From Nitrosarchaeum sp. (GTDB taxonomy: Archaea; Thermoproteota; Nitrososphaeria; Nitrososphaerales; Nitrosopumilaceae), in the NCBI GenBank assembly GCA_965223865.1, contig OZ245020.1:1024001-1088000 (forward strand): 64,000 nucleotides of DNA, read 5' to 3'. Positions 2,538 through 33,492 of this stretch are shown in pieces; the stretch's first letter is position 1, and each line of letters starts with the position of its first letter. Both the position numbers and the translations under genes were made by a program. The notes beneath the pieces were generated by a model. The model worked only from the letters and a program-made list of their open reading frames with translations. It made no database searches and had not been told where the DNA came from.

Positions 2538-4346
2538 TTGAAGACCAAGACATTGATTCTGCTTGCAATTCCAATTGTTGTAATTTTTTCTGCCAGTCAA
2601 AGTGCGCATGGATTATGGTTACCACAATCTCCAACGGAACTTCTTGAGAAAAGCCACTTGATCTTTGTTGGAACCATAACCTCTGTAAATTCTTTGGAGT
2701 TTGAACAGTCCAACTCGTACGAAATTGAGGAGGATGGAGTCTCCCAAACTATTGTTGAAAACTACACTCTTGTCCTTGATGAATATACGGTCAGCGTTGA
2801 TGAATTTGTGAAAAATCATCAAGACATAGATACAATTACAGTCAGACAGCCTACAATCAGCATTCCGGGAAGAATTGTACCTCATGGAGGGTTTGACATT
2901 GGTGACAGGGTATTGTTTTACATTGAAAATTTTGACGGTACTAACACCTACTCTAAGGAATCATTCAAAATTCCAGAACATTGTGATGCGGTAGCTGTTG
3001 TTCAGAAACCAAGAATGATTGGGGGTGACCTGAAAATGATGCAGGAAGGTATGGAAAAACAAGATAATTTCACTGCAAAATATCCTGTGATGTTTATTTC
3101 ACAAATGGATTTGGGCACACTGTATGGTGCAAGTCTGGAATATGATGTATACATTAGCAAACAAGTTGACAATATATACAAAGACATAGTTTTTCATGAG
3201 AAAATTACATCATATGCCAAGCCATGTGAATGGTTGTCTGTTGCAAAATGGGAGTTTACACCTGATACAGGCAACTATCTTGTAAATGGGAGAATATACA
3301 AAGAAGATTCCAACTTACCTATTGGCAACCAATTCTTTTCTGTGTTTGCAGAATCTCCGCTAAAGCAGTTCAAGTCAGGAGTTCCAGCTGATAAGATACA
3401 ATGTAATGATGATTTTGTTTTACTCAAAAAATACAACGGCTTCCCTGCATGTGTAAAACAGAACAGCGTCATTGACCTCATAAAACGAAATTGGATGACT
3501 ACTGATCAAATAGATGGTTATGCAATTGATTATGATGGAGATGTAAAACATCTGCCATTTGCTGATATTTGTACTAATGAAATGAGGATAATCTTACTGA
3601 CTCATTCCAACATAAGGTCACCTGAAGAACATTTTGTAATGGAAGATGTGGCTTTACCATCTAGAATGAATCAAGAAGATTTTGAACAATGTGCACGTGA
3701 AACAGATTTTACAAAATCAAGATGGAATATGGTCTCATTGGAAAATCCTGAACCTGAACCATCTAGCTTGAATGAGAAAAATCTCACCGATGCAAGAAAT
3801 AAACTAAGAGAAGTTTATCATGCTAATGCATCTTTTGGTCCATTTACCATCAAAGAGGCTATTGTTGGTTATGGTATGGGTGATGGATTTTTAGTGGTAG
3901 ATATTCTAGAAGATTACTATGATTCAGATGAATACTACCAATTAATAATACAAAAAATAATTGATATAACTGGCGGTAAAGTAGACATTGAGTTTAATTC
4001 ATCAGGCGCAATAGTTCCAACAAACATTGAATCTATATTTCCCCACATATGGAACGGATTTTTACATAGAAATGGAATAGAGTTTACTCCAAAAGATCAA
4101 CCCTATGCAAATAATGACGTTGGATACGATAATGTTCATCGTGTGTGTTCTCCTGTGGTGACATCTAATGGCACTGAACTATACATTTCGTCTGTATTTG
4201 TCTATGAGCCTTTTGAAATCACTGGAACATTTATTGATAAAATAAAACCTGATGACTGTTACAAAGTTTGGAAAACTGACACTGTTCTAGAAGAACCAGA
4301 CAGAATACTCATGTTATGGCTTGAAAATTATCATAAGAGTAATTAG
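2538..4346 (+). CDS. Secreted multidomain protein with PLKQ-Cys-Cys-RGW module
   Basis: Signal peptide MKTKTLILL; SPLKQFKSGV..C..PACVK..RNW. Confidence 0.85.
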   Translation: MKTKTLILLAIPIVVIFSASQSAHGLWLPQSPTELLEKSHLIFVGTITSVNSLEFEQSNSYEIEEDGVSQTIVENYTLVLDEYTVSVDEFVKNHQDIDTITVRQPTISIPGRIVPHGGFDIGDRVLFYIENFDGTNTYSKESFKIPEHCDAVAVVQKPRMIGGDLKMMQEGMEKQDNFTAKYPVMFISQMDLGTLYGASLEYDVYISKQVDNIYKDIVFHEKITSYAKPCEWLSVAKWEFTPDTGNYLVNGRIYKEDSNLPIGNQFFSVFAESPLKQFKSGVPADKIQCNDDFVLLKKYNGFPACVKQNSVIDLIKRNWMTTDQIDGYAIDYDGDVKHLPFADICTNEMRIILLTHSNIRSPEEHFVMEDVALPSRMNQEDFEQCARETDFTKSRWNMVSLENPEPEPSSLNEKNLTDARNKLREVYHANASFGPFTIKEAIVGYGMGDGFLVVDILEDYYDSDEYYQLIIQKIIDITGGKVDIEFNSSGAIVPTNIESIFPHIWNGFLHRNGIEFTPKDQPYANNDVGYDNVHRVCSPVVTSNGTELYISSVFVYEPFEITGTFIDKIKPDDCYKVWKTDTVLEEPDRILMLWLENYHKSN

Positions 4347-4360
4347 AAAATGAAAACTAG
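4344..4360 (+). repeat. Gene-junction motif TAGAAAATGAAAACTAG (representative copy)
   Basis: Exact copy at 26911; near-exact at 9358, 10952(-), 23244, 24695, 30651(-), 33476 and others. Confidence 0.85.
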
Positions 4361-4742
4361 ACTTGTGATAATCGTTGGAATAATTGGAGTTGTCTTGTCA
4401 TTTTTTGTGATAACTGGTTTTCTGGTGTTTGTTATGGGTCCACTTAACCATCAACAAGTTGTTGAATATCAGTCAAATGAATTAGTGCAACAGTTCCTTG
4501 AGACTTATCCTCAAAGTGGGATAACCTCTATGTCTGGAACGTTGTTTGAGAAGGAAATCAGCTTTACATACTCTAAAAATGCAAGATATGTTTCATTGAC
4601 ATTTTCAGATAGTATGGATGGTCAAACAATTTCTTACAAATGTGAGAGAATAATATCCTCACAAGAACCCGTAGAGATATTTCACTTTGAGGAACCCTCT
4701 CCTGAAATCATCAAAAATAACGTATGTGGAGAATATGATTAG
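4350..4742 (+). CDS. Membrane-anchored hypothetical protein
   Basis: MKTRLVII N-terminal TM helix; 130 aa. Confidence 0.8.
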   Translation: MKTRLVIIVGIIGVVLSFFVITGFLVFVMGPLNHQQVVEYQSNELVQQFLETYPQSGITSMSGTLFEKEISFTYSKNARYVSLTFSDSMDGQTISYKCERIISSQEPVEIFHFEEPSPEIIKNNVCGEYD

Positions 4743-4745
4743 AGA

Positions 4746-6281
4746 ATGAAAACCAATCTTTTGGTAATTGCATTACTGTTTGTAGGTGTTTTTAGTTCTG
4801 TGCACTACTATGTTCCTGAGATTGATGATGAAGAATTGTTTGATAAGACGTCTCTGATTTTCCCAACAATGCCTTTTGCATATGCAGGTTGTGCTGCAAC
4901 AATCATACCACAGCCATGTTTTGACTCCTTTATGGGCAGTCATGAACCATTAACTGAAGACATCATCATGAAGGATCTTGCAAGAAACCTCGAAACAAAT
5001 TATGGTGATTGGATTCCTGTTGACAGAAACTGGGATTTTGAAGATGAATCCTTAGACTTGCCTGCAATAATTTGTACTGAATACATAGTTGATGGCTCAA
5101 AACAATACAGGATGGCTCAATGGGTTGATCCTTACAGGATTTCTTCTTGGGAAAATCATTACAATCCCCTCATGTGTGATAGATGGTTGCCTCCTATTGA
5201 TGATGGAATTAAAATCACTTGGGATAAGCAAAGCTATCAGGCAGACAGACAAGGCATTGTAACTGTAATTGACTACTCTATGAATAAGAATCCAAATGAG
5301 GATGAATATTTTGAAATTAAGGTTCATTCGGATGTTGATCATGCTGGTATCTCACTAACGGTAACTGAAACTGAACTTGATTCAGGAATATTTGAAGGCA
5401 TAGTGTTTTTTAGTCCTACTGAGGAATCAAGCGGATCTCTATTGCTAGTTGAAGACGCAGTATATGCAAAACATGCTGGGAATTCTGCCAGATCTAAAAT
5501 AACAATCGTTGAAAATTCCTTTGACGATTCTCAAATTTCATTCTACAATTCTGAGCTTCAACGCTATATCGACGAGTGTGACCCCTTGATCCACAAAGAG
5601 ACACTGCCTGACATTACAATAGAAACTGAAACTGAATGGTATGACTTGCAATACTGTATGTGGAGGCCTCACTATCCTGATGTCTCAAATATTGATAACT
5701 GTGTAGATTTGTTTGATACCCTTTACGCTTTTCATAGTGCACCAAAGCCAAACTGCGGAGTGCAGAGATACAATGAAGACGGCACTCCCAGAGGAATTTG
5801 TGAACCTGAACCATATTTGTCTGGCATGTACAGTGACGAGAATTTGATTAACAGTAACTGTACTGAAAATTATTCAGAATGGGCATACAAAACAGATGCA
5901 AACGATATGGTGTTTTATGTATTTGAAGAGATGGAAAAATATCAAGATTGGCAACTCAAGCGAGTTTTAGATAGATGTGAGGAAAATAATCCAAACAGAT
6001 CCATCAAGTCTTTTGAAAACTATACCCATTACATTGATTCAGGGTTGTGTCAATGGAATCTAAAAGAAATTTCAGAAAAGGTACAGGCTGTTCCTCTTTG
6101 TGTTGATGAAGACACAATACTAAAAGACGGTGTCTGCCAAAAAATTGTAACTGATCCGCAACCTTCTGATTTTAGAGAATCTGGAGGTAGCATAAGCCTG
6201 CTTTATGCTTATTCTGGCTTGGGACTGGTCGGAATTGTTGTTGGATTTTTGGTAATCAAAAAATGGAGAAAGAGAAAATGA
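4746..6281 (+). CDS. Secreted Cys-rich protein with one S-layer-like domain and C-terminal TM anchor
   Basis: Segment VHSDVDHAGISLTVTETELDSGIFEGIVFF matches the protein at 18618-20708; ends in TM + KKWRKRK. Confidence 0.85.
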   Translation: MKTNLLVIALLFVGVFSSVHYYVPEIDDEELFDKTSLIFPTMPFAYAGCAATIIPQPCFDSFMGSHEPLTEDIIMKDLARNLETNYGDWIPVDRNWDFEDESLDLPAIICTEYIVDGSKQYRMAQWVDPYRISSWENHYNPLMCDRWLPPIDDGIKITWDKQSYQADRQGIVTVIDYSMNKNPNEDEYFEIKVHSDVDHAGISLTVTETELDSGIFEGIVFFSPTEESSGSLLLVEDAVYAKHAGNSARSKITIVENSFDDSQISFYNSELQRYIDECDPLIHKETLPDITIETETEWYDLQYCMWRPHYPDVSNIDNCVDLFDTLYAFHSAPKPNCGVQRYNEDGTPRGICEPEPYLSGMYSDENLINSNCTENYSEWAYKTDANDMVFYVFEEMEKYQDWQLKRVLDRCEENNPNRSIKSFENYTHYIDSGLCQWNLKEISEKVQAVPLCVDEDTILKDGVCQKIVTDPQPSDFRESGGSISLLYAYSGLGLVGIVVGFLVIKKWRKRK

Positions 6282-7030
6282 AGACTGGAAATAAAATGAT
6301 CATATCCCTGGTTGCAATATTTGCAGTTTCTATTCCTATTTTTTATTTTACACAGGAAACATCTTTTGAAACCTCAATCCAAACAGATCCAGTAGACAAA
6401 CGAGAAGATCTTGATGAAGTTATACATTCTAACACGTCTTGTGTCAGCTTCTGGCGTACAGAATTATTCGAGATGCGGAAAGATGTCACTTATGATTATA
6501 AAAATGATCCCATATTCATAGAGTGCTCAGATGCCCTGACATCCCAAAGACACCTTGAAAGTCTGGAATTTGACAAATGGAGTGGACAGGGAGACGTTCA
6601 CTATGAAAGGGTAGACAGTGATAAAAAATACTGGGCAACCCTAAAGGACATCAAGTTACGTGGTGATGATGAGTCAATCCAGGTTACTTTTTCAGGCAAT
6701 GACTTTGAGACAAGCTGGACTACCACAGGACAGCAAAAGAAAACCTACACTGTTCCAGACTTTAGGATTGTCACAACAATTCACAAGGGCCAAGAGTTTG
6801 TTGCACTCTGCACCGACACGGTTGAGCGCAGAATTCATGTCCTAAAATATGACGGAATCACAGAAAAAGATGGAATTGACTACTATTCCTTTTGGCACAA
6901 GTCAACTACAATTCCAATTGAAGACTTGCCCAAGTGTCAATATCCGTCCATAATTAAGGACAGCAAAAGTGTTGATTTTGACTTGGGAGAAAAGCCAACT
7001 TCAGAAGTTTGGGACCATGACTGGGAATAG
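6278..7030 (+). CDS. Membrane-anchored hypothetical protein (paralog of 27740-28402)
   Basis: Start moved to ATG 6278 (MKTGNK, ATGA overlap). Confidence 0.8.
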   Translation: MKTGNKMIISLVAIFAVSIPIFYFTQETSFETSIQTDPVDKREDLDEVIHSNTSCVSFWRTELFEMRKDVTYDYKNDPIFIECSDALTSQRHLESLEFDKWSGQGDVHYERVDSDKKYWATLKDIKLRGDDESIQVTFSGNDFETSWTTTGQQKKTYTVPDFRIVTTIHKGQEFVALCTDTVERRIHVLKYDGITEKDGIDYYSFWHKSTTIPIEDLPKCQYPSIIKDSKSVDFDLGEKPTSEVWDHDWE

Positions 7031-7033
7031 AAG

Positions 7034-7990
7034 ATGAAGACTGAATTTGGAATAATTGTTCTGGTGGCAATCATAGCTTCTGCAACATTGTTTTTCATAT
7101 ACCAAAACCCAAATGAAATCCCAAAATCAATGTCATTTAAAAAACAAACAAGTGAAATTATTCAAATCAATGAAAACTCAAAAAAATACAAACTGGATAA
7201 CGACATGCAACAATTCAATGCATCAAAAAAACTGATGGAGGAGAAACTCAAGGAACTTTCATGGGATTTGCTTGGAATCAAGATTTCCAAAGTCACATTA
7301 CTTGAAGGCCAATATCCGTTCCTAACTGTGCAGGAAAGAGCAGAAAAGTTTGACCTTGATCCTTCCTCAGTGTGTGCCTTTGAGCAAAACATCCCTCTGC
7401 AACTACAAAAAATCTCCCAGATAGACAATTTTCAGATGTTTTCCAAAAAATACCGATCACATACTATTGAACTAGACATATTTGATGAGCGAAATGACAT
7501 ATCAAACATTCACTATGGGTTGATTGCAACAAATGACAATGAGCAGAGTGCATCTACTTTCTTTCATCTTGATACGTGTACCAACAAGATAACGGACAAA
7601 CAACCATATTCTTTGAATTGCTTTGATGCAAATAGCGACTATAAGTTTGCCACATTCAACACCGATGATGTTCTGTCTAGCTACTCAAACGGCCATTTCT
7701 GCAAGATAGAGTTGGATCCTTGGCGTCAATCTCTTCATGAATATTCATTGACATTACGTGAGCAACTCCGACAACTAGAACAAGAATCCATGACAGGAAT
7801 TGTAGATCAAGAATCCCATTGGAAGTTCATCTCGGAGATGAACAAACTAGGAGATCTTGGAAACCTTGTTGCACAAGTTACTCACTACAACTATGATGAA
7901 CAAGGCTTACAAGAAAAAATTGAACAATATGAGAAACAGTATGGAAGCATTCCTGAGGAATTGTCAGAACTAATGGAGAAGAGAAAATGA
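7034..7990 (+). CDS. Membrane-anchored hypothetical protein
   Basis: MKTEFGIIVL TM helix; 318 aa. Confidence 0.8.
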   Translation: MKTEFGIIVLVAIIASATLFFIYQNPNEIPKSMSFKKQTSEIIQINENSKKYKLDNDMQQFNASKKLMEEKLKELSWDLLGIKISKVTLLEGQYPFLTVQERAEKFDLDPSSVCAFEQNIPLQLQKISQIDNFQMFSKKYRSHTIELDIFDERNDISNIHYGLIATNDNEQSASTFFHLDTCTNKITDKQPYSLNCFDANSDYKFATFNTDDVLSSYSNGHFCKIELDPWRQSLHEYSLTLREQLRQLEQESMTGIVDQESHWKFISEMNKLGDLGNLVAQVTHYNYDEQGLQEKIEQYEKQYGSIPEELSELMEKRK

Positions 7991-9354
7991 AAACTAACCT
8001 TTTGATAATCATTGGGATTGTTTTGACATCTGCAGTAATTGGAACAATTTTTGCCATTTTTATGATTTCTTATGATAACACACCTCAGACCACATTTGAC
8101 TATGATGTAGATTATGATGATCTTGTAGTGAGAGATGTTAGCATGATAGTGTACAAGACAGTGAATGATCATCCAGGAAAGAGTTGCTTTACTTTGTCTT
8201 CAGATGACCTAAATAGATTCCCAGATGACTTTTTAGATGACCTGAACAGTGCTGCACAAGAAGGGTTGCGTGAAGATCCTCAAATCTATCCTCCAGGCGT
8301 GTATACAGGATACGGCATGAATGCAGAAAAGAATCTTGTACTGGATCTTGTAACAAAGTACAACTTTAGTGAAACCCAAAATGTCTCTACTGACAACATC
8401 GCATCAATTCCTGACTCTGAATACCTTTTTGACTGCTTTTTTGATTATGATGGCAAGCAGTACCTGTTAAGACTAGAGTTTCAGCAACAACTACATGATG
8501 GCAATTTTGCAAATGTAAATGTCACAAAGAACAGTTTGGGCATTCCACATATCCTCAATGAGGATATTGTTGTGTTTCACGGTGGCTTCAACAGTACAGT
8601 TCTGTTTCACAATAACTTGAACACTGAAATCACTCTTTTCACACATGAGCCAACAGTGAATTTTGTAGATGAGGACGATGGAGACATTCATGAAAACAGA
8701 TTTGCAAAAACATTATCTGACTTTGAAACAATCATTCCACCCGGAAAATTCTTCTCATACTATTTTTCGCCGCACAAAGATAAGAATGATTTGCCAATAA
8801 GATATATGATAAAACCTTTTGATCTAGAGGGAACAGTAACTGTGAAACCCTATCCTCGGTGCATGACAGAAAACGAAGTAGCATCACTTTATGGTACGGT
8901 GAATGTGTATCCAAAGTTTCCAAAATATCTTCCAGGGGGATACACCTTTGAATGTGGAGTGCACAATACAAACGCGTTTGTGCATCTTGTTTACATGACT
9001 GACGAACAGCGCTCAAAGTTCACTGACACGGCAAATGCTGCATTTAACAGGGAATTTTTTGCAGATGGGGGTCTGGTGATTGACTATTATGATGAGGCAT
9101 GGAATGGGTGGATTGAAGATCCTAACTATGACAAGTTTGAAAAGGCACAAGAAAATTCACAGCACCCCAAATCCAAGACACTTGTCATTTCAGACCAGCC
9201 AGCAGTAATGATCAAGGAGTATTTTTGGGATGATGGGCAGCAGCATTCCTTTAACCGATTGGAGCTTTTTCTTGATGAAGAGCAAATCCGAATAAAAAGC
9301 GGTTTGGACGAAGAAGAATTGATTAAGATTGCAGAATCTTTTTTTGACAGGTAA
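7987..9354 (+). CDS. Membrane-anchored protein; C-terminal domain shared with 25639-26898
   Basis: MKTNLLII; PKYLPGGY...EEELIKIAESFFDR. Confidence 0.8.
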   Translation: MKTNLLIIIGIVLTSAVIGTIFAIFMISYDNTPQTTFDYDVDYDDLVVRDVSMIVYKTVNDHPGKSCFTLSSDDLNRFPDDFLDDLNSAAQEGLREDPQIYPPGVYTGYGMNAEKNLVLDLVTKYNFSETQNVSTDNIASIPDSEYLFDCFFDYDGKQYLLRLEFQQQLHDGNFANVNVTKNSLGIPHILNEDIVVFHGGFNSTVLFHNNLNTEITLFTHEPTVNFVDEDDGDIHENRFAKTLSDFETIIPPGKFFSYYFSPHKDKNDLPIRYMIKPFDLEGTVTVKPYPRCMTENEVASLYGTVNVYPKFPKYLPGGYTFECGVHNTNAFVHLVYMTDEQRSKFTDTANAAFNREFFADGGLVIDYYDEAWNGWIEDPNYDKFEKAQENSQHPKSKTLVISDQPAVMIKEYFWDDGQQHSFNRLELFLDEEQIRIKSGLDEEELIKIAESFFDR

Positions 9355-9363
9355 GATTTGAAA

Positions 9364-9522
9364 ATGAAAACTAGGTTTTTGGTATTAATTGGAATTGTTA
9401 TTGCATTGACAATTTCTTTCTTTGCTCTAGATCCATCACAAGATCATATTGCCCAGTATTTTCTGACTGATGAACAATTTGAGGAGATGATTTTGAATAA
9501 TGATATGCTGACAGATATTTGA
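9364..9522 (+). pseudogene. Short or truncated cassette-type ORF (52 aa)
   Basis: Begins in junction motif, MKTRFLVLIGIVIALT..., early TGA. Confidence 0.5.
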
Positions 9523-9741
9523 CATATAATGAATCAAGTATTGTACGATGATAGAGATGATCTAAATGAGGTCGTTTATGCTTCCTGTTTCTCACGTATC
9601 ATTAAGGTAACTTCATCTAACTAGAGGAATACAACGAATTTCTTAGAATTTTAAAAGATTAAACCGTAACAAAAATTCCTTCTATGTGAGCGCTTTATTT
9701 TGAAATTATTTTTTGAGAAAGATTTGGTTTTGTGATTACTG

Positions 9742-10962
9742 TTAAGGAGAATCAAGAGTGATGTAACCCGATTTATAATAAACAATATCAATTTCATTCC
9801 CTACAATTTCTCTTAACATCTTGTCAGTTCTTTCTAGAGTCTCTCTGGTAAATTTTTCTTTCACTATTCCTACTTTAATACCTGCAACCTTTCCAGCATA
9901 TCGCTCGTCTAATGAATATGCATCAAGACCAAATGTCACCCCAGAAAAACTTGGAATTGGAAATTTTTCTCTATCATAAGTGCCAAATTTTTCAGAAAAC
10001 AGAGTACTCTTTTCCCAAAGTGTCTTTACTAACTCCCATGATACTTTTTCATTAAAGGCCATATCTGCATGAAGTATAATCAATTCTTGTTCATCATAGA
10101 GTTCATTTCTTTCTTTTTCTGCAATATTTGGATCTTCAATCAAAGTATCTAACTCTAATTTCCTTTTTTCTAATAGTCGAAGATCTTCCAATGACAACAA
10201 ATCTTCCTGTACCATCATCCCTGTGCCCCTTATCACTACTGGACTGTATTTTAGAATATGACTATCTCCTTTAGATTCCTTTTTGGCCCAACCACGTTCT
10301 GTCAATTTTGATATAGAACCTGAATCTACACAAACAGGAATATGCTTTTGTTCATAAAACTTGTATATCTTTGAAAGGTTTGGGTGGCAAATTACTTCCT
10401 GGAAACTGACATCATTTTTCATCTGCTTTAGTGGTGGCAGTATGTGTGAATATGGAGGGTTGTGGATGACGTCACATGAAACATTTGTTATGTTATCAGA
10501 AAGTCCAAACGTACCAATAATTTCAATTTCTTTAGAACCTGACGATAACAAAATTCCGTATTCTCTGCTCTGTGCATGACCTGTTTCATTATAACTTGTT
10601 TCCTCACCATCCACTAAGATGATAAACTCCTTGTCTTTGTCTTCATGTTTCATATCCAACAAATCCCTCGGTATGTCAATTACAAGCGTTCCAGAATCAT
10701 TTGATGTAATGCGGATAACAAGAGAGTTGGATTCGCAATAGGGAATTATCTCATCAATTGTGCTATTTGTTATGTTGTATGGAATATTGTATTTGATCTG
10801 TTTTGTTGTTATGCTGTAAACATCTGATAGTGGAATCGTTGTTGGGGAATAACTAGAAGAGTACATTATCTGGGCATTTGCATCTGGAATAGTCAGAAAA
10901 TAGGACAACGCCGGTACGCCACAAACAGCAATTGCAAAAATTATCAAAAGCCTAGTTTTCAT
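9742..10962 (-). CDS. Secreted protein with PEFG-CTERM-associated-type domain and PLKQ-Cys module
   Basis: MKTRLLII start; GTLVIDIPRDLLD..FIILVDGEE..EIEIIGT; PPLKQ..C..CV..ERGW. Confidence 0.8.
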   Translation of the reverse strand: MKTRLLIIFAIAVCGVPALSYFLTIPDANAQIMYSSSYSPTTIPLSDVYSITTKQIKYNIPYNITNSTIDEIIPYCESNSLVIRITSNDSGTLVIDIPRDLLDMKHEDKDKEFIILVDGEETSYNETGHAQSREYGILLSSGSKEIEIIGTFGLSDNITNVSCDVIHNPPYSHILPPLKQMKNDVSFQEVICHPNLSKIYKFYEQKHIPVCVDSGSISKLTERGWAKKESKGDSHILKYSPVVIRGTGMMVQEDLLSLEDLRLLEKRKLELDTLIEDPNIAEKERNELYDEQELIILHADMAFNEKVSWELVKTLWEKSTLFSEKFGTYDREKFPIPSFSGVTFGLDAYSLDERYAGKVAGIKVGIVKEKFTRETLERTDKMLREIVGNEIDIVYYKSGYITLDSP

Positions 10963-10964
10963 TT

Positions 10965-24358: not shown

Positions 24359-24379
24359 CTCATAGTTAAGACTAGTCAG

Positions 24380-24697
24380 ATGACAAAGATTGATTGTGCA
24401 CAAAACACTGAGCTTGCAGAAGAGATTGCAGAATTTCTACAGGAAAAGAATTTTTCAATAACATGCGAAAATGATCTGCTGATTACAAATGCAAGACTTT
24501 CAAAATCATTGCTTGAGTTATTTCTTGAAAAAACTGACAGGACCAGACACAAAATCACGCTTGTCGAACCAGATACTTTCCTGATTGCAATTCCTGTAAA
24601 GATGGAGGAAATCGGATTAGAGTCTTGTGAATTTTGCGGGTATACGAGCCACCATGATCTAGTTGAAGTTCATAGAAGGACACACCAAGGCTTGTAG
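24380..24697 (+). CDS. Small protein with C-terminal C2H2-type zinc finger
   Basis: CEFCGY...HRRTH; start moved to MTKIDC. Confidence 0.75.
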   Translation: MTKIDCAQNTELAEEIAEFLQEKNFSITCENDLLITNARLSKSLLELFLEKTDRTRHKITLVEPDTFLIAIPVKMEEIGLESCEFCGYTSHHDLVEVHRRTHQGL

Positions 24698-24700
24698 AAA

Positions 24701-25642
24701 ATGAAGACTAGGTTCTTGATGATTGTTCTTGTATTTGCAGGTATTTTTGGAACCGTTTATGCTGTTCCAGAGCCTGATCCTGAACACAGCTTTAGATATT
24801 CTGAAATTGTTATTGAGGGCAGGATTTTGTCAGTCAGCATTATTTCTGAGCCCATAATTTACAGAACTGAAGACACTTACTATGAGCAATCAGGAATTGC
24901 AGTTTATGATGTGCAAGTTGTAAAGTCCCTAAAGAACCCTGGTAATGTCAAAACGATTACTGTTGCAGGATATTTCTTAAGAGAACCTCATCCTATGGCC
25001 TATGAGACTTATCCATATGAAGTTGGACAAAAGGTACTGTTGTATTTGCAAGAAAATACTCATGGAGATGGAAATACAGATTTGATTATTCGCTCCAGCA
25101 CTTCAAAGATAGTTGCAGAACCTGATTCTGATTTGGAATCATTGCCTCCTTGTAAGAGTGGACCTTCCCCAGGAAGAAATTTTGTTTTCTTTGATTGTAA
25201 TTGGGTTGAGGTTCCGGATCATTGGAAGTTTGAAAATGGAAAGTGGCAAGAAGATCCATCTGTACTAAAACTTGGACCCGAACCTGATCCCGTATGTCCA
25301 GAAGTTGCTGTTTGTACCTGTCCAGGAAAATACAACTACTACAATTCCACTGACAATCGATGCTACTCTTCACCGTACATTCCGACATCTTATCAGAATG
25401 CATGTAAGCAGTATGCGCAACTTGACTTTGCAGGATGGGCCTTTAATGAAAACACGTGTGACTGGGTTTCTGCCTCTAACCCATACACTGATGATGAAAG
25501 ATTACGTCTGGCGTCTGAGAAGGTAGAACCAGGAGGTCTTGGCATCGATCCTGTCTTTGATGCAAGTACTATTATCGTTGGTGTGTTGATTGGAGCAAGT
25601 GTTGTAGTTGGCATAACATACTACTGGAGAAAAAGAAGATGA
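24701..25642 (+). CDS. Secreted Cys/Pro-rich protein with C-terminal TM anchor
   Basis: MKTRFL signal; N-domain resembles 2538-4346; ends in TM + WRKRR. Confidence 0.85.
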   Translation: MKTRFLMIVLVFAGIFGTVYAVPEPDPEHSFRYSEIVIEGRILSVSIISEPIIYRTEDTYYEQSGIAVYDVQVVKSLKNPGNVKTITVAGYFLREPHPMAYETYPYEVGQKVLLYLQENTHGDGNTDLIIRSSTSKIVAEPDSDLESLPPCKSGPSPGRNFVFFDCNWVEVPDHWKFENGKWQEDPSVLKLGPEPDPVCPEVAVCTCPGKYNYYNSTDNRCYSSPYIPTSYQNACKQYAQLDFAGWAFNENTCDWVSASNPYTDDERLRLASEKVEPGGLGIDPVFDASTIIVGVLIGASVVVGITYYWRKRR

Positions 25643-26898
25643 AAACTGGAACTTTGATAATTGTTGGTGTAATTGCAATATTTGCAGTGTTTTTTGTACC
25701 TGTAAATGGTTTTTCTGAAGATAATTTTGATATTGGGAGATTTAGCTATTTTCATTACGGGGAAAAATTTTACCAATACAAGTACTATCCATTTGGCACG
25801 TTAGCAAGTGAGTCTTCTAGCAGATGCTATTTTACATCCGATTTTGTTCTTGATAAAAATTCTTTTTCAGAGCCAGGACATGTCATGTACAAATTTCCTA
25901 ATGACATGGTCTGGCCTGGCGGATATGCAAATAGCACATTTTTTGTCATGAGTTCACCCTCATTTAACTTTCCTGAAGATAACAACTTTGAGAGGATAAT
26001 TCCAACCAAAACTGAAGAAGGCAGTATAGTTTTAGAGTTCAATCTTGTGCCCGGACTCAACACATTTCTTGCAAACTCTACTGCTTTTTGGGACTCTCAA
26101 AAATCACAGATAATTGATTGCCCAAACCCATTTGATTATGAAAGACAAGATTATGGATATTATGACTTTGTGTATCCTCTTAAGGTTCAGCAGGACCGTG
26201 CAATGATTTTTGATTTGGACAAAGGTGATTTTTTGTGCAAACCAGAATTTGTTTTAATCAAAAAATATGATGGCTCTCCCGCATGTGTAAGGGAACAAAC
26301 TGCTCCAAAACTAACTGATAAAGAAGAAAGATCAGGTTGGAATGTAAGTGAACAGTTGTGGGAGTCGCTATCAAAGAATATGAATGAATATTATTCTGAT
26401 GATAACTGTCCAAGGCATTGTCTTATCTTTGATGAAAAATATGTTGTAAATGGGATAGAACAAACTTTAGGAAAAACAATTGGACTGCCAAAACTTTTGC
26501 CGGACGGTTATGACCATTTTCAATTTCATCATAGAGACACGTATTCTGTAGTTCAAATTTCTCCCAATTCTATTTCTTTGGATACATCTTGGAATGATTT
26601 TTACTGGGAAGATAATGGAATATTTCTATTATTTTCTGAAACCCCTGTAACTGTTGATGGAAGGACCCAAACTGAATACTGGGCAAAAAACAACGATGCA
26701 CAAAAACTAGATTTGATTACATCTGATGAACATGTGTATATCAAAGAAAGAGGAATTTTTTATGATGATAAACTTGACATTCTTTATCCAACATTTACAG
26801 AAGCCAAATTTAATTATGGAGACCTAACAATTACAGTAACAGGTTATGTTTCAAGTGAAGAAATGTTTAGAATAGTGAATTCATTTTTTGAAAAATAA
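25639..26898 (+). CDS. Secreted mosaic protein with Cys module
   Basis: MKTGTL; KKYDGSPACV; N-domain shared with 28992, C-domain with 7987. Confidence 0.85.
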   Translation: MKTGTLIIVGVIAIFAVFFVPVNGFSEDNFDIGRFSYFHYGEKFYQYKYYPFGTLASESSSRCYFTSDFVLDKNSFSEPGHVMYKFPNDMVWPGGYANSTFFVMSSPSFNFPEDNNFERIIPTKTEEGSIVLEFNLVPGLNTFLANSTAFWDSQKSQIIDCPNPFDYERQDYGYYDFVYPLKVQQDRAMIFDLDKGDFLCKPEFVLIKKYDGSPACVREQTAPKLTDKEERSGWNVSEQLWESLSKNMNEYYSDDNCPRHCLIFDEKYVVNGIEQTLGKTIGLPKLLPDGYDHFQFHHRDTYSVVQISPNSISLDTSWNDFYWEDNGIFLLFSETPVTVDGRTQTEYWAKNNDAQKLDLITSDEHVYIKERGIFYDDKLDILYPTFTEAKFNYGDLTITVTGYVSSEEMFRIVNSFFEK

Positions 26899-26916
26899 TT
26901 GTTGATTAAATAGAAA

Positions 26917-27480
26917 ATGAAAACTAGACGTCTAGAGAATTTACGAAAAAGAATAATTCTGGTAATCTTGGGAATTGTTGCATCCTATTTTGGAATTATA
27001 CCATTAGGCATGTTTTATCATATGTTTACATCTTTTTCATCATCTGATCCTGTATTCTCATACTTTTTCTTTAACGGTGCAAGAATCGGGATTATGGTAT
27101 TGTTTTTGTATTTTGCACTAGTACGTGTAAAACCATCACTTGTTCCACAACAAGAAAAATACAGAAAACTTGTCCTGCTTGCAATATTTGTGATTGTTGC
27201 ACTTGCTGTTTGTCTGCCAAGCGGATATGTCATTCCTCAACTAGAACAAGGCGGATGTATCACAAAATCCGGAAACTATAATGATGATGGTAATTTTGGC
27301 GGTTCTTCATCCCAGGGGATAACAACTGAATCTGAATGTATTGACAATTGTGTATTTTCTGGCAAGTTTAACACCCGAGAAGAAAAGTTTTGCGAGTTTA
27401 AGGGAGTATTTGGAAAAACACAATGGGTACAAACTCCTGCTGATTTTGAGACTCCAGTATTTGGTGAAATTGTAAAATGA
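26917..27480 (+). CDS. Membrane protein
   Basis: MKTRRL; 3 TM segments and Cys-containing tail. Confidence 0.8.
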   Translation: MKTRRLENLRKRIILVILGIVASYFGIIPLGMFYHMFTSFSSSDPVFSYFFFNGARIGIMVLFLYFALVRVKPSLVPQQEKYRKLVLLAIFVIVALAVCLPSGYVIPQLEQGGCITKSGNYNDDGNFGGSSSQGITTESECIDNCVFSGKFNTREEKFCEFKGVFGKTQWVQTPADFETPVFGEIVK

Positions 27481-27743
27481 AAATACTTTTGGCAATCATT
27501 GGAATTTCTTTATTATTTGTAATTTCAACTAGTGTTGTATTGTGGCCTGAATACGGAATGGTTTGCAACAATGCCGTAACGAAACATCTCCAAAAACATT
27601 CCAATCTGTTTGATGAAAATACTACTCATGAAACATATGCCATACAGGACATTGGATTTCCGTTTGGAGTGCATTCTTGGAACGTTCAAGAGTGTGTAAA
27701 TTATACATTTGAACAGCGCATCACAAAGGATGATGTAAAATGA
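27477..27743 (+). CDS. Small exported protein
   Basis: Signal-like N-terminus; ATGA overlaps at both ends. Confidence 0.75.
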   Translation: MKILLAIIGISLLFVISTSVVLWPEYGMVCNNAVTKHLQKHSNLFDENTTHETYAIQDIGFPFGVHSWNVQECVNYTFEQRITKDDVK

Positions 27744-28402
27744 AAGATAGTACCAAGAATGCTTCTTATGCAATTCTGTCTGTTATAATCGTCCTGCCTG
27801 CAATTTTTCTTGTCAGCGATTACATCTACTTTCAAGAGCCGTTATCAAGAGTAGCATTGTATCCGGATGATCCTATGTGTGACAAAGACTGCACTGAACA
27901 AGTCTCTGACGGATACAAGTGTACCGAGATAAAACAAGATGAATATGTGTGCAGAAAGCAACGCGGATTTTCCATTGGAGATGATGCTGTTTTCTATCAT
28001 TCAGCAGGGCCAATTTCCTATGGTGAAATCGTATCATTTCCAGAGGGGAAGTTTGAGGATATCTGGTTTAACATATACAATGTGAGAGTAATCGATAAAA
28101 ACTCAAAGACAATACAGGTCGATTTTGTCGAATCTGAAGATTCTTCTAGTGTGATATACAGTGCAAAGCTCAAACCGAATGACTCTTTTCTTTCATGCAT
28201 AAACCCGTGGAAATCTACACATCTTGTGTACTACACAGATCTATACGAGTATGAAAGCAAGACATATGCAGAATTCTGGGGACTTCATCCATACGCCCCT
28301 CCAGAGTTATTTCCCTGTGACATGCCAAAGATACTGGAATACTCATTGAGGACAGACTATGACATCTTGCTGCCAGAATATGAAAAGTTTGGATTTGATT
28401 AG
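27740..28402 (+). CDS. Membrane-anchored protein (paralog of 6278-7030)
   Basis: TIQVDF..FW..CDMPKILEYS vs SIQVTF..FW..CQYPSIIKDS. Confidence 0.8.
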   Translation: MKDSTKNASYAILSVIIVLPAIFLVSDYIYFQEPLSRVALYPDDPMCDKDCTEQVSDGYKCTEIKQDEYVCRKQRGFSIGDDAVFYHSAGPISYGEIVSFPEGKFEDIWFNIYNVRVIDKNSKTIQVDFVESEDSSSVIYSAKLKPNDSFLSCINPWKSTHLVYYTDLYEYESKTYAEFWGLHPYAPPELFPCDMPKILEYSLRTDYDILLPEYEKFGFD

Positions 28403-28425
28403 AAAATATCCAATATACAAAATAT

Positions 28426-28442
28426 CAGAATCACTTATGAAC
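28426..28442 (+). promoter_or_regulatory. Variant AGAAGAACTTATGAA motif
   Basis: CAGAATCACTTATGAAC, 32 nt before ATG 28467 of a 27-aa remnant ORF. Confidence 0.55.
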
Positions 28443-28546
28443 ATGCTACATGGCGTCTAGTTGAGCATGAAGCACTTGTTGATTTTTCTTATTTTGTTCA
28501 GTATTACGGTCAAAACCCCGCAAGACATTGAAGAGTTTGAATGCAT

Positions 28547-28822
28547 ATGAATAGCAAATTCACTATAATCAGGAAAACAAACTCAATTCCGTTGTTTGTT
28601 CTGGGAGGACTATCGTTGCTTATGATTCTGATTAATGCAGAAGCGTACTATTTTGGAATCAAGTTCAACGGACTTACCGCATTGTTGTTTGTAGGTTCCA
28701 TTGGATTGGTTGGAATTGTTCTTGGCATTTTTCATGGTGCAAATAAAAGAAAAGCAGACATCCCAGTTGTTATCTGGTATGTTATATTTACATCAGTAAT
28801 TGTAGGAAACCAGCTGTTTTGA
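28547..28822 (+). CDS. Small membrane protein
   Basis: 3 hydrophobic segments; start MNSKF. Confidence 0.7.
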   Translation: MNSKFTIIRKTNSIPLFVLGGLSLLMILINAEAYYFGIKFNGLTALLFVGSIGLVGIVLGIFHGANKRKADIPVVIWYVIFTSVIVGNQLF

Positions 28823-28952
28823 AAACAAGTGGTGATACTCTTGCAGATTAGTACTGCTTTATGGTGATTGATTTTGGATTTATCTTTGGTATTATTTTTT
28901 GGAGAGATAAAAAATGAATACTAGATTCTAACTAGACTGTAAAAGAGCAAAA

Positions 28953-28991: not shown

Positions 28992-29792
28992 ATGCAATTT
29001 TTTGCAATTTTATTAGTGCTTGCGAGCCTTGGGTTTTCATTATTTTTCTTGTCTTCTTATCAAGAATCTCATGCAATACTTGTATCAATAGTAAAAGAAC
29101 CAACTCCTGGCGAAATCAAACTTGCCGAAGAGGGATATTTTGCAGAATCTTACTCTCTTATGCCATTTGGCAACAAGCATTTTTTCTACAAATCTGAACC
29201 GATGCCCAACATTGGAGAAATATCAATGTCAAGATGTATGTTTTCTGCAACATTTCTTCCTAAAGACGGGCAACCTGTACACATGACTATGAAGTTTCCA
29301 CATGACCTAATATGGCCCGGCATGTATGACAATAGTACTTTCTTTTCAATCAAGGATCGATTTGCCTCATTTACTGATGAGTCAGGAAATACCGTCATCA
29401 ATGAAAGAATTCCTCCAAAATACGAAAAGGTAGCTCCAGTAAGGGATTCAGAGTTTACAACAATTGATTTTGATCTTAGGGGTGAGGTCAGTCATGTACT
29501 GATTAACATGACTACATATCCTGCCACTTTGGGGCCAGTAGATTTTAACAAAATATGTCCTACTATACTGCCCCCAATGAGTTCAGACTATTATGATACC
29601 ATTTCATCAAAAAATGCCCAGAAAATGATTGCCGGACGATGGGGGTTTCCACCAGATACATACATCTGTCCAAACAACAAGATTGGTGCAATAAAGGCAA
29701 CAGATAATTCTGAAGTGTGTGTAAAACCAGAGTCAAAAATCAAGCTAGTAGATAGGGATTGGGCAAAGGACTATTCTGATTATAAAAACTAA
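28992..29792 (+). CDS. Secreted protein with C-terminal Cys module
   Basis: KFPHDLIWPGMYDNSTFF shared with 25639; VCVKPESKIKLVDRDW. Confidence 0.8.
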   Translation: MQFFAILLVLASLGFSLFFLSSYQESHAILVSIVKEPTPGEIKLAEEGYFAESYSLMPFGNKHFFYKSEPMPNIGEISMSRCMFSATFLPKDGQPVHMTMKFPHDLIWPGMYDNSTFFSIKDRFASFTDESGNTVINERIPPKYEKVAPVRDSEFTTIDFDLRGEVSHVLINMTTYPATLGPVDFNKICPTILPPMSSDYYDTISSKNAQKMIAGRWGFPPDTYICPNNKIGAIKATDNSEVCVKPESKIKLVDRDWAKDYSDYKN

Positions 29793-30358: not shown

Positions 30359-30661
30359 TTATTTTTTTAAACTGAGATTTTTTAGTTTTTGTAAACTACC
30401 ATGTCTATTTATTATTAGATGAATCATCATACCAAGACCTATTACAAATAATGTGCTGCTTATTATTTGACCAACAAAGGGTACAAGACAATCAGGATTT
30501 GACAGTATTGCCCTTGAATCAAACCCTAAAGTAACAAAAACAAACAATGCCATTCCTGTAAATCTTTTACATTCAGGTATTGTAGAATCTAAAAATAAAA
30601 CTCCATCGATACCAAAAATCATCAAGAACGTTCCAATAATTAGCAAAATTCTAGTCTTCAT
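30359..30661 (-). CDS. Small membrane protein
   Basis: MKTRILLII; starts in junction motif. Confidence 0.75.
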   Translation of the reverse strand: MKTRILLIIGTFLMIFGIDGVLFLDSTIPECKRFTGMALFVFVTLGFDSRAILSNPDCLVPFVGQIISSTLFVIGLGMMIHLIINRHGSLQKLKNLSLKK

Positions 30662-30664
30662 TTT

Positions 30665-31315
30665 CTATCCCGGTATTGGCGCCCATCCTCGTGTGATTAA
30701 TTCATGCCTTGAATCAATCTTGATGCATACCAATTTGGAAAAATCATGTTTTACAATCGATGATAATTCTGGATTCTTACATCTTCCATTTGCATCAACT
30801 GCCTTGCTATACTCTGAAACTACCCAATATCCACCTCCACTCGAACCGCTTCCTTTTTCTTTTCCAAGCGAATGATCAAAATAATGATACTGATATCTTC
30901 CAGGCTTGTCAAAAGAAACGGTAAAGTTTACAAGCATTGGCAAATCTGATTGTTCTGTATCTATATCGGTAGAGTTTCTCAGAGATAAAACCTGTCTAGT
31001 ATCCTCAAATCCTGTAAATGTTCTATTGTATTCTGGAGTCATGTGGTTGGGAATTTTGTCTAACAAGTAAAACCCATATCCTACCCTTACCTGAGACTCT
31101 TGGTTTCTAGATTGATCATCCAGTACTATTTGTAGGCGGTACTCTTTTCCAACAAGTGGAAAAATAATTTGATTTGATTCAAATCCGTCATCTGTAAAAA
31201 GACCACTTTGGGGAACATATTTTCTTTTTTCTAGTTCCTCATGATATGCAAATGACTCGTTTATAAAAAACACTGTAACCAAAACAAGAAAAATCACGAG
31301 ATATTTCATACGCAT
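30665..31315 (-). CDS. Secreted protein with C-terminal Cys module
   Basis: MRMKYLVIF signal; C..VKHDFSKLVCI..TRGW. Confidence 0.8.
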   Translation of the reverse strand: MRMKYLVIFLVLVTVFFINESFAYHEELEKRKYVPQSGLFTDDGFESNQIIFPLVGKEYRLQIVLDDQSRNQESQVRVGYGFYLLDKIPNHMTPEYNRTFTGFEDTRQVLSLRNSTDIDTEQSDLPMLVNFTVSFDKPGRYQYHYFDHSLGKEKGSGSSGGGYWVVSEYSKAVDANGRCKNPELSSIVKHDFSKLVCIKIDSRHELITRGWAPIPG

Positions 31316-32280: not shown

Positions 32281-32452
32281 GTTACAGGTGATTTGCGATA
32301 TTGTTTTTAGATCTTCTTCTAAAATTATTAGTTTGCAGAATCTCGAAAAATCTAACAAAAAATTAAATATTTTCCACGTGGGACTTAAAACTAATCCAAT
32401 AAATGATTTTTAGTATAACAATCATAATTAATCATCACAGTTTCATCATTTT

Positions 32453-32662
32453 GTGACTAGAAAAGCTCAATTCAATAAGAAAATCTTGATAATGATAATT
32501 TTAGCAGGAATTGGACTTGTAATTCAAATGATTCTTTCTTCAATGTACCCTGCATCTGAGTATAGTTTTACGTTTGGTGTTGCACTTGCTATTTTTGGAG
32601 TAATTATTGCAATAATGATTGCAATGTATAACAAAGTTAGAAAAGAAATTCCTAGAGAGTAA
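32453..32662 (+). CDS. Small two-TM protein
   Basis: 69 aa, two hydrophobic helices. Confidence 0.65.
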   Translation: MTRKAQFNKKILIMIILAGIGLVIQMILSSMYPASEYSFTFGVALAIFGVIIAIMIAMYNKVRKEIPRE

Positions 32663-32835
32663 AAATGCAATTAAAATTCATTCTGATGATATTGGGGGCT
32701 ATTGGTGCAGCATTACTAGAATTTGTAATTTTACTTGGATTCATTCCTACTCCTAATTTCTAAAAATGGTTCAATCCTTTATGGATTCAAACATTTAGTA
32801 GAACACTTTATCATATAGCCTACAAAATGTTCGGT

Positions 32836-33492
32836 ATGAGGTTAGGAGTCATCGTAATTCTGTCGTCTGCAATGATGTTGATTCCAGTAACTGTTTTTGA
32901 CGCGTATGCAAAATGCTTGCATGATGAGGAGTGTTATGGTGCTCCAGCATTTTTCCCACTGAAATACCAACTTGAGTTTTACATCCTCCCAAACATCGTA
33001 TGTCCCAACCAAGATCATGTTTTGGCTGAAAGACCAAACGGAAAATTGGCATGTGTTACAAATAGTACTGCAGAAAAAACTGGATGGCTAATTCATTACA
33101 GGAACGTAGTTGATACCAAAGGTGTAGTTCCAATAAATTCTCCTGGAACAGTAAATCTAGTTCGTTTTGAAATTACAGGAGCCACACTTGATAAGATGAT
33201 ATATGAAAATCAGATGCTGATTACCTCAGTTACTCCTAATGAAGAATACGGAGTGTTGTCAGTTGAATTACCTACAGGTACATTTCCTGCAAACTTCAAG
33301 TATTGTGATCCTAGGATGGAAAACCCTCCAAACACACCATACATTATGATTGTTGATGGTACAGAACGCCCATTAGTTGAAGGTGTAAATTCCCGTTTTC
33401 AACCTGCTTTTAACATCCCACTTAATGAAAACTCTAGAACCATTGAAATTATTAGAACATGTATTGATCTTGAAGTAGAAAATAAAAACTAG
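32836..33492 (+). CDS. Secreted protein with N-terminal Cys module
   Basis: PLKYQ..C..PNGKLACVT..KTGW; start 32836 or 32827. Confidence 0.8.
   Translation: MRLGVIVILSSAMMLIPVTVFDAYAKCLHDEECYGAPAFFPLKYQLEFYILPNIVCPNQDHVLAERPNGKLACVTNSTAEKTGWLIHYRNVVDTKGVVPINSPGTVNLVRFEITGATLDKMIYENQMLITSVTPNEEYGVLSVELPTGTFPANFKYCDPRMENPPNTPYIMIVDGTERPLVEGVNSRFQPAFNIPLNENSRTIEIIRTCIDLEVENKN

Follow-up and report, generated by a model that had tools for sequence, protein, structure and literature searches.

Why do genes for otherwise unrelated proteins with secretion signals, lined up on an archaeal chromosome, open with nearly the same 17 letters, and what do these letters do? The question arises in a stretch of 64,000 nucleotides (nt) from Nitrosarchaeum sp. 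(GenBank assembly GCA_965223865.1, contig OZ245020.1, forward strand, positions 1,024,001 to 1,088,000), which we call the window; positions are counted from its first letter. An earlier note on this DNA had pointed to a near-identical sequence at about 17 gene junctions, spanning the stop of one gene and the start of the next, and had proposed that it is the recombination core of a gene-cassette system. Ammonia-oxidising archaea (AOA), which count among the most abundant microbes, have small genomes from which few mobile elements are known, and their surface variation is poorly understood. The reading that we favour, with a probability of roughly one half, is that the 17-mer is a shared stop/start joint, which keeps translation coupled from gene to gene and is also an in-register crossover point for short-homology recombination.

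The joint and the genes it opens

The window holds 18 matches to the motif TAGAAAATGAARACTAG at three mismatches or fewer, against 0.84 expected (standard deviation 0.94); the largest count in 100 shuffles was 4, and none of the 100 attained 18. Fifteen of the matches fall in 4344-33492, at sites listed in the earlier note, whose central observation is thereby borne out: 4344, 4740, 6272, 7028, 7981, 9358, 10968(-), 23244, 24166, 24695, 25633, 26911, 28908, 30667(-) and 33476, where (-) marks the minus strand. Two further listed sites, 22716 and 23667, have four mismatches apiece to TAGAAAATGAARACTAG, and the remaining three matches, at 39120, 60282(-) and 62379(-), have three mismatches and open no open reading frame (ORF). 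The 2.01-Mb genome that holds the window (G000) has 5 exact copies, 13 copies with at most one mismatch and 23 with at most two; the window, which is 3% of this genome, contains 4, 8 and 11 of these, respectively. Further small clusters lie at C1:205001-208488, 1685343/1685981 and 1974208/1976749. Fifteen of the 17 listed copies are in direct orientation. The copies in the window are given below (aa, amino acids; TM, transmembrane).

4344..4360, plus strand: exact motif; the 602-aa gene stops here (TAG) and the 130-aa gene starts (ATG) after a 3-nt spacer; left direct repeat of the four-gene block
4740..4756, plus strand: motif with 3 mismatches; 130-aa/511-aa junction, 3-nt spacer; from here on the 511-aa gene and its G004 copy are homologous
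6272..6288, plus strand: motif with 2 mismatches; ATGA overlap; a TM anchor and WRKRK form the C-terminus of the upstream 511-aa protein
7028..7044, plus strand: motif with 3 mismatches; 250-aa/318-aa junction, 3-nt spacer
7981..7997, plus strand: motif with 2 mismatches; ATGA overlap at the 318-aa/455-aa junction; right direct repeat of the four-gene block
9358..9374, plus strand: motif, TTG variant; 9 nt past the stop of the operon's last gene, with a 52-aa ORF only
10952..10968, minus strand: motif, TTG variant; contains the TGA stop of the 714-aa gene, then a 2-nt spacer and the start of the 406-aa gene
22716..22732, plus strand: weak copy with 4 mismatches; start of the 174-aa gene
23244..23260, plus strand: motif with 1 mismatch (MNTR); 3-nt spacer
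23667..23683, plus strand: weak copy with 4 mismatches (MTTR); TAA stop and 3 nt; the ORF is 47 aa here (cut) and 166 aa in G004
24166..24182, plus strand: motif with 3 mismatches; operon end, only 20 codons led
24695..24711, plus strand: exact motif; 3-nt spacer, start of the 313-aa gene
25633..25649, plus strand: motif with 3 mismatches; ATGA overlap; a TM anchor and WRKRR form the C-terminus of the upstream protein
26911..26927, plus strand: exact motif; 18 nt past the upstream TAA, its own TAG not being the stop
28908..28924, plus strand: solo motif with 2 mismatches; 5 codons follow, and the 277-aa gene starts about 50 nt downstream
29776..29792, plus strand: decayed copy with ATA for ATG; end of the 277-aa gene at the third-frame stop, signal-anchor-like codons after it
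30651..30667, minus strand: exact motif; 3-nt spacer, 228-aa/100-aa junction
33476..33492, plus strand: terminal solo motif, ATA in place of ATG; traversed in the third frame by the 221-aa gene, whose stop is the last TAG

Each forward frame of the 17-mer contains a stop codon. The TAG at letters 1-3 is in frame with the ATG, the TGA at 8-10 forms the ATGA overlap, and the TAG at 15-17, in the third frame, is built from the T of ACT and the AG of the arginine codon. Among the listed sites, a 3-nt spacer after TAG or TAA was found at eight (4344, 4740, 7028, 23244, 23667, 24166, 24695 and 30667), one more than had been counted before, and the ATGA overlap at three (6272, 7981 and 25633); the former statement that most other junctions overlap as ATGA was therefore too strong. 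The spacer is 2 nt at 10968(-), 9 nt at 9358, 18 nt at 26911 and 36 nt at 22716. At 28908 there is no upstream ORF, and at 33476, where ATA replaces ATG, the upstream gene terminates at the motif's last TAG. Stop and start are tight, that is, overlapping or 0-3 nt apart on the same strand, at 12 of the 17 sites (eight with 3 nt, three with ATGA and one with 2 nt). As had been claimed, the motif is retained where its first triplet is not the upstream stop (9358 and 26911) and where no gene follows (28908, with 5 codons, and 33476).

The stops are put to use well beyond the window. In 123 distinct sites from 19 sources, with upstream ORFs counted from 60 codons upwards, the upstream ORF ends at -6 in 26, at the ATGA in 36 and at +8 in 16, and thus terminates inside the motif at 78; it ends at -5 (the TTG variant) in 4 and elsewhere within 30 nt in 27, and none was found in 14. 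The 130-aa gene family is joined to its upstream neighbour via the first-frame TAG in the window, and via ATGA both in G004, another Nitrosarchaeum genome, and at C1:205750. The all-frame stop is a real and used property of the motif, but it is not the full explanation of its conservation.

Intact copies each contain the ATG of an ORF that codes MKT or MNT and then R, N, G, K or E, just as the earlier note had described, followed by a hydrophobic stretch, and signal-peptide features (N-terminal basic residues and a hydrophobic core) are present in all intact motif-led ORFs. The mature parts of the motif-led proteins of G000 and a relative form at least 10 groups without blastp similarity. One larger blastp group is tied together only by a stretch of about 50 aa, the WING-49 domain (NCBIfam; 49 aa), which is found in the 602-, 406-, 419- and 701-aa proteins; the description of the proteins as unrelated holds for the most part, but these four have a domain in common. 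No Pfam family was above cut-off for 17 of the 20 proteins scanned. Above cut-off were BNR_2 on the 1154-aa protein and DUF389 on a flanking gene, and CDC48_N on the 449-aa protein (34.1 bits) was just under its cut-off of 35.1 bits.

The far ends of several proteins also touch the joint. Their C-terminal membrane anchors end W/Y-R-K-R-K (window 6222-6281 and 25580-25642; many loci in other genera). The codons of the W-R-K-R-K tail (TGG AGA AAR AGA AAA TGA) provide the GGAG and the AGAAA of the next joint, and the anchor codons (T)GGAGAAARAGAAAATGA double as GGAG element, spacer and the overlapping stop/start of the next gene. Since (T)GGAGAAARAGAAAATGA serves both anchor and joint, this is one sequence shaped by two readings.

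The motif is not a general start or coupling signal. Among 341 tight same-strand junctions in G000, the ATGA overlap is the commonest type (92), and AGAAAATG occurs at 12, of which 11 lead MKT genes. In 643 G000 genes with a fairly unambiguous ATG start, AGAAAATG occurs 6 times and G stands at -4 in 13%; G stands at -4 in 24 of 25 non-redundant motif sites, a set that was selected by the motif itself and whose inner columns are inflated. Only 94 of the 643 genes have a 4-mer like a Shine-Dalgarno site, and the 3' end of the 16S rRNA has CCTCC. Nor does the motif belong to secreted genes in general: of 208 signal-like N-termini in G000, 16 have the core, ten of them in this island, and 192 lack it.

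The motif is conserved at the nucleotide level, and amino acids alone do not explain it. In loci of other genera, the threonine codon of starts that code MKT and an anchor is ACT in 54 of 55, where genome usage is 36% ACT and 46% ACA; at the same 55 starts the lysine codon is AAA in 52, and AGAAA stands upstream in 34. These loci were picked for core matches, within them every start of this kind was counted, and the sample is less biased than the 25-site set. The variants MNTR, MRTR, MKIR and MKPR are each one letter off the consensus, with a residue altered. The codon counts and these residue-changing single letters argue that the letters are kept, and not the peptide alone. Past +12, conservation drops to the level expected for hydrophobic codons, some pairs being alike over 26-47 nt.

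Exchange at the joint and its spread

Do genes come and go at the joint? The backbone of G004 is about 80% identical to that of G000, and two island stretches are far more alike: window 2422-4381 at 99.1% and 7982-28732 at 98.5%. In G004 the two adjoin each other, as about 23 kb at G004:C1:109392-132068, in a different genomic neighbourhood. The left edge of the shared stretch is 116 nt before the 602-aa gene. An identity of 98.5-99% in the island over some 80% in the backbone, in different neighbourhoods, points to a recent transfer of the island between species, or from a common donor. No integrase or tRNA target for this transfer is visible. The two features concerned are:

2422..28732, plus strand: stretch common to G004 at 98.5-99% identity, minus the four-gene block; at another genomic place in G004
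4359..7995, plus strand: four-gene block (130, 511, 250 and 318 aa), present in G000 and missing at the same place in G004

The seam in G004 corresponds to copy 4344 on its left and to copy 7981 on its right, and the switch lies within a shared 15 nt, AGAAAATGAAAACTA. G004 fuses the 602-aa gene directly to the 455-aa gene, without the four-gene block. Because the seam switches inside AGAAAATGAAAACTA, the 130-, 511-, 250- and 318-aa genes represent an insertion or deletion bounded by two motif copies. The idea that breakpoints of gene gain and loss fall in the motif thus agrees with the genome alignment for this block. Another breakpoint, where the 98.5% stretch ends on the right (28732), falls not in the motif but in C-terminal anchor codons, about 20 nt ahead of it in G004, and shows that crossovers can also use other shared modules. 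The 130-aa gene stands elsewhere in G004, at 81% identity and behind a different gene. The 511-250-318 genes also stand elsewhere in G004, at 93% identity and behind a copy of the 44 nt that precede the window's 602-aa gene, and the switch there is at the degenerate start motif GAGCAA(A/T)TGAAG. At four loci with entirely different flanks (two in G000, one in G004 and one in G003), the 130-aa gene can be aligned from its start motif to the next start motif and not beyond on either side.

Neighbours were also compared in 53 pairs of homologous motif-led genes, which share families and are not independent. They differ in 11 of 12 cases upstream and 5 of 6 downstream at 60-90% aa identity, in 30 of 30 and 18 of 21 below 60%, and in 1 of 7 and 1 of 5 at 90% or more. 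Over the shared 20.7 kb, G000 and G004 show 309 differences, which are patchy, the patches overall not being bounded by motifs; at the motif of 25633, however, divergence steps up from 0.5% to 2.5%. Close to the island in G004 there is a multi-copy element that was considered as a transposase and rejected, as its translation reads as a cation/proton antiporter-like membrane protein family.

A metagenome scan with the 455-aa protein gave three loci; L024 has the gene in another motif-rich context, and L025, in which a 602-like and a 455-like gene seem to be fused, contains Ns and is of too low quality to give the four-gene event a direction. Parts of window 2400-10400 are contained in 20 sequencing runs from 17 studies (shares 0.06-0.86), with no RNA run listed. 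For window 2001-22000, four runs yielded only short Logan contigs and four listed joints with sides of 23-36 letters, none at the motif, these contigs being too fragmented to show circles or deletion joints. Contig ends lie at or near motifs in X1 (7982) and in X2 and X6 (9335), and X6 diverges upstream of 4330.

The core AGAAAATGAARACT was found in 48 of 151 genomes of the family, a tally that takes in the unpublished genomes G095 (6 matches) and G110 (1 match), which enter into nothing else said here. A reversed-pattern control also matches many genomes once or twice, and the excess consists of clustered matches: 14 for the core against 2 for the control in G004, 15 against 1 in G157, 10 against 2 in G000, 9 against 2 in G015 and 8 against 2 in G113. 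Clusters from five further genera have the same joint at the starts of genes coding MKTR and an anchor; in genus g10 and in G010 (genus g5), the variant TAGAAAATGAAAACTCT (MKTLH...) stands behind promoter-like sequence. Scanned across genome and family, then, the copies are concentrated in the window and in clusters of several genera, and 16 genomes from other families of the order gave 0 matches at up to one mismatch. With one genome for each of 185,579 species, the exact 17-mer occurs in at least 115 stretches; among the 80 matches listed, 45 are labelled Nitrosopumilus, Nitrosarchaeum, Nitrosotenuis, Nitrosotalea, Nitrosopumilales or Thaumarchaeota, and the other 35 are single occurrences in assorted, mostly A+T-rich bacteria. 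Only 7 stretches among 2.9 million viral contigs have the exact 17-mer, which we take to mean no viral association.

Many copies stand alone. Thaumarchaeota-labelled loci contain 48 exact copies, 26 of which open an ORF of 60 aa or more whose start is hydrophobic and 19 of which lead fewer than 40 codons, 4 of the latter being cut by the locus end; a broader solo count of 54 in 148 includes stretches L108-L142, whose organisms are unlisted, and is not a rate. Many solos supply the stop of the upstream gene, and many keep 3-10 further anchor codons, resembling truncated genes. The solos in L043 (3634-3672, minus strand) and L074 (973-1011, plus strand) come from different genomes and have only the motif and about 30 nt in common, forming a unit of about 47 nt with a T-rich tail and unrelated flanks. 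This unit might close operons, as a module or a terminator, or be mobile in a minimal form. Several units of the window have a terminal copy or its remnant behind their last gene (9358, 24166, 29776, 33476, and half a motif at the stop of the 220-aa gene), and the copies at 9358 (52 aa), 24166 (20 aa) and 23667 (47 aa) lead short ORFs only. Three terminal copies have ATA for ATG with the rest kept: 29776, 33476 and G004:C1:137342. In the two of the window, the upstream gene reads through to the third-frame stop.

A second conserved module, T[TC]AGAAGAACTTATGAA, heads seven transcription units in the window (2498, 13146(-), 18098(-), 22174, 24341, 28425 and 31347(-)). Four of these are exact, and G000 has no other exact copies; further copies lie at C1:118926, 1340148 and 1977792, the latter two adjoining other motif clusters. 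The ATG of the module either starts the first gene or opens an upstream ORF (uORF) of 4-9 codons (MNL..., MNI..., MNM...) that stops just before it. As an A/T-rich box lies about 27 nt upstream of this ATG, the module probably acts as a core promoter, from which transcripts would start leaderless. In G004, one copy of the module has moved before the 511-aa gene. Five of those in the window are:

2498..2514, plus strand: operon-head module TTAGAAGAACTTATGAA; a uORF of 7 codons, opened by its ATG, lies immediately ahead of the 602-aa gene and its TTG start
13130..13146, minus strand: exact operon-head module; 5-codon uORF before the 714-aa gene
18082..18098, minus strand: exact operon-head module; its ATG is the start of the 1154-aa BNR-repeat protein
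22174..22190, plus strand: operon-head module with 1 mismatch; 7-codon uORF before the 155-aa gene
24341..24357, plus strand: exact operon-head module; its ATG starts the 114-aa gene

Several other features of the region were recorded. Inverted repeats of 45 nt, 82% complementary (9358-9402 and 10924-10968), share the same rare TTG variant of the motif and lie around a 1.5-kb segment with the 406-aa gene; this pair could be the trace of an inversion. Inverted repeats of 92 nt, 79% complementary (29934-30025 and 32216-32307), enclose a 2.2-kb segment with a 128-aa gene, a minus-strand two-gene unit joined by an exact motif, and a 198-aa gene. Between divergent genes, at 31380-31432, is a 53-nt element richer in G+C, with one copy in G000, no Rfam match and copies of 89-91% at two places in G004 (near 534374 and 138585), which could be a small RNA or a regulatory site; the Rfam scan of the window gave tRNA-Val only. 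The 449-aa protein (13185-14534, minus strand) lies mid-island, has no signal anchor and looks cytoplasmic, with a weak DUF5643 match and a CDC48_N-like N-terminus. The 701-aa secreted protein (18603-20708), which has WING-49 at its C-terminus, gave a weak match, far under cut-off, to the repeat region of an anammox S-layer glycoprotein model. Window 33001-53000 has almost no synteny with three same-genus genomes, only scattered matches, so that the flexible region seems to extend well past 33492.

Weighing the readings

How could one short sequence produce this picture? We propose that the joint consists of the 17-mer, with its three-frame stops around the ATG that opens MKT(R) and a hydrophobic signal anchor, and that it serves a pool of island genes, spread across the Nitrosopumilaceae, whose secreted or membrane-anchored products are not otherwise related. 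Within operons headed by the putative promoter and mini-uORF ATG module, the joint would set each start 0-3 nt from the previous stop, and would keep start beside stop in whatever frame the upstream gene arrives. Ribosomes could then pass from gene to gene by termination-reinitiation, which would matter in a genome with few Shine-Dalgarno sites and many ATGA junctions. The geometry of stops and starts suggests such translational coupling. Because the same 15-26 letters recur at every gene boundary, they would also offer an in-register crossover point, at which genes or blocks could be inserted, deleted and re-assorted, also between species, with both neighbours intact. The recombination, we infer, would take a host homologous or microhomology route and not that of a dedicated integrase.

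A number of points weigh against this proposal. Fifteen to 17 identical letters are short for RadA-type recombination, and genes are packed 0-3 nt apart, so that selection for intact genes alone puts surviving breakpoints at motif boundaries. The recent events stem from one genome pair and about three junctions, and the interdependence of the neighbour pairs counts here as well. With regard to the stops, an unused first-frame stop is retained in only 10 of the 36 ATGA-type sites, and the genus-g10 variant ...ACTCT (MKTL) keeps the T at +9 without forming a stop, for which reason the third-frame stop is not the whole reason for that conserved T. Among the four 130-aa genes, 3-4 of the 17 letters of the start motif vary, a divergence close to that of the gene itself, which argues against very strong purifying selection.

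The alternative that survives best, although we think it somewhat unlikely, is a purely expression-related cis element: a class-specific start, reinitiation site or operator for a secreted-protein regulon, to be recognised by ribosomes, by a small RNA or by a protein that binds RNA, recombination being incidental or only apparent. The motif is always at a start codon, in frame and unstructured, many copies have purine-rich GGAG-like elements at -9 to -14, and both the tight stop/start geometry and the family-wide conservation of synonymous positions fit such a role. So does the MKTL variant, which is preceded by promoter-like sequence and not by a gene in need of a stop. Taken alone, however, an expression element explains neither the exact in-register exchange of unrelated neighbours nor the perfect solo copies without a gene. 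Complementarity of the motif to 16S rRNA is not in excess (-9.8 against -8.9 +/- 1.6 kcal/mol for shuffled motifs), the genome-wide matches include no candidate for an antisense copy, and ordinary secreted genes, 192 of 208, manage without the motif.

A bolder reading, which we consider unlikely, is an undescribed cassette-type exchange in Nitrosopumilaceae, in which the 17-nt joint would be all-frame stop, start and attachment site in one. Surface genes from a cross-species pool, singly or in blocks, would be inserted at solo joints behind a leaderless promoter/uORF head and expressed immediately by ribosome hand-over, with neither attC hairpins nor a linked integrase, through a trans-acting enzyme or an unusually efficient short-homology pathway.

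Still less credence goes to a dedicated site-specific gene-cassette system, whose recombinase, encoded elsewhere, would recognise the 17-mer, excise circles and insert them at resident motifs, the solos being landing sites. Such a system would be at home with a sharp conserved block of about 16 nt between flanks that are unrelated on both sides, with a crossover exactly inside this block, with solos as common as 19 of 48 exact copies (under 40 aa, the 4 cut ones included), with terminal copies at the window's operon ends (9358, 24166, 33476 and 29776), and with the L043/L074 pair, alike only in the motif and some 30 nt. The resemblance of operon heads to a common promoter module and the movement of the island between species also speak for it. 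The enzyme itself was sought. G000 has tyrosine recombinases (PF00589) only at C1:860764, 866048, 1627454 and 1856771, all far from its other clusters too, and some 158 kb separate the window from the closest of them. In five other motif-rich genomes (G004, G157, G113, G015 and G149) no motif cluster has one closer than about 29 kb, and the one at that distance is syntenic with a G000 gene away from any island. Serine recombinase (resolvase), Y1 transposase and TnpB families have 0 matches in G000. No recombinase of these families is thus nearby, in line with the earlier note's statement that the window encodes none, and the note was right also that attC-type hairpins are missing, since the joints are less structured than shuffles: 60-nt windows at 25 sites have a mean minimum free energy of -5.2 against -6.0 kcal/mol (z +0.38; core -0.13). 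The motif has no dyad symmetry beyond TAG...CTA. Furthermore, the copies are all in register with a start codon, something that a site acting only as DNA could do without, the breakpoint at 28732 lies in anchor codons, outside the motif, and many solos, with 3-10 anchor codons kept, look like truncated genes. The earlier proposal is thus partly supported: the motif is class-specific and nucleotide-conserved, with solo copies and crossovers inside it. The results do not support a dedicated site-specific system, and short-homology recombination between functional joints would give the same outcomes.

Plain shared descent, from diverged tandem paralogues or a duplicated, exon-like 5' end for the signal peptide, with a functionless motif, is very improbable: signal anchors are alike (MKTRLLIIIGI...), some pairs (families D1 and D2) over 26-47 nt, paralogous clusters such as C1:205001-208488 exist and some proteins have WING-49 in common, but mature parts form at least 10 unrelated blastp groups, the synonymous choice of ACT (54 of 55) holds across genera though neighbouring anchor codons have diverged, the upstream AGAAA persists both as spacer and as codons for R-K, and gene order is reshuffled and not tandem-conserved.

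Likeness to known systems

Both halves of the stop/start joint that we favour, coupling and crossover, have parallels elsewhere. Termination-reinitiation at overlapping or adjacent stop and start codons is known in bacteria and archaea. The joint has in common with ATGA-type coupling a stop 0-3 nt from the next ATG, at 12 of 17 sites, and ATGA is the commonest tight junction of G000 (92 of 341). It differs in being a fixed 17-mer with three-frame stops, common to unrelated genes and conserved at synonymous sites, whereas ordinary coupled genes of G000 do without it.

In the erp/ospE-F genes of Borrelia with their upstream homology box, in the vsa, vsp and vpma genes of Mycoplasma and in the sap genes of Campylobacter, unrelated or variable surface proteins have a common 5' end, at which recombination reshuffles the protein that is made. 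The conserved regions of these systems are tens to hundreds of bp long, and site-specific recombination there goes with inverted sites and a recombinase next to them; the present element measures 17 nt and is mostly direct and operon-internal. In the mosaic lambdoid phages, short shared boundary sequences mark the exchange of unrelated modules. The present locus, by contrast, is a cellular archaeal island and not a phage, and its joint would have a translational role as well.

With integrons the island shares arrays of single genes, which may mostly lack promoters and stand behind a putative common promoter region, units set off by a short site that recurs and at which genes join, leave or change order, and terminal copies of the site. 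It differs from them in that there is no adjacent integrase and no attC-type imperfect hairpin, and in the position of the site, which is 5' and includes three stops as well as the start codon. From shufflons and site-specific inversion it is set apart by the 15 of 17 direct copies, with one inverted pair, and by the lack of a nearby recombinase.

Variable archaeal islands driven by recombination and coding secreted proteins have been described as VARTIG of Thermococcales, and flexible genomic islands for Nitrosopumilus and Nitrosopelagicus in a preprint on AOA microdiversity. In the parts of these sources available to us, no junction motif is mentioned, and the words 'signal peptide', 'recombination' and 'cassette' have 0 occurrences in that of the preprint. 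Literature searches yielded no description of the motif, its core and MKTRLLII matched no paper as text strings, and a paper on Red Sea transcript starts has nothing on Nitrosopumilus promoters.

If our reading is true, the joint would explain how the flexible islands of AOA are built, including exchange between species about 20% apart; viruses and niche fit are possible reasons for varying the surface. The motif would be a simple marker for such islands and their gene pool in metagenomes, and the joint, a stop per frame and then a start, would be a compact natural 'plug-and-play' operon connector. Short conserved junctions that guide modular exchange are of a kind already known; what is unusual here is the dual role, with a part in translation.

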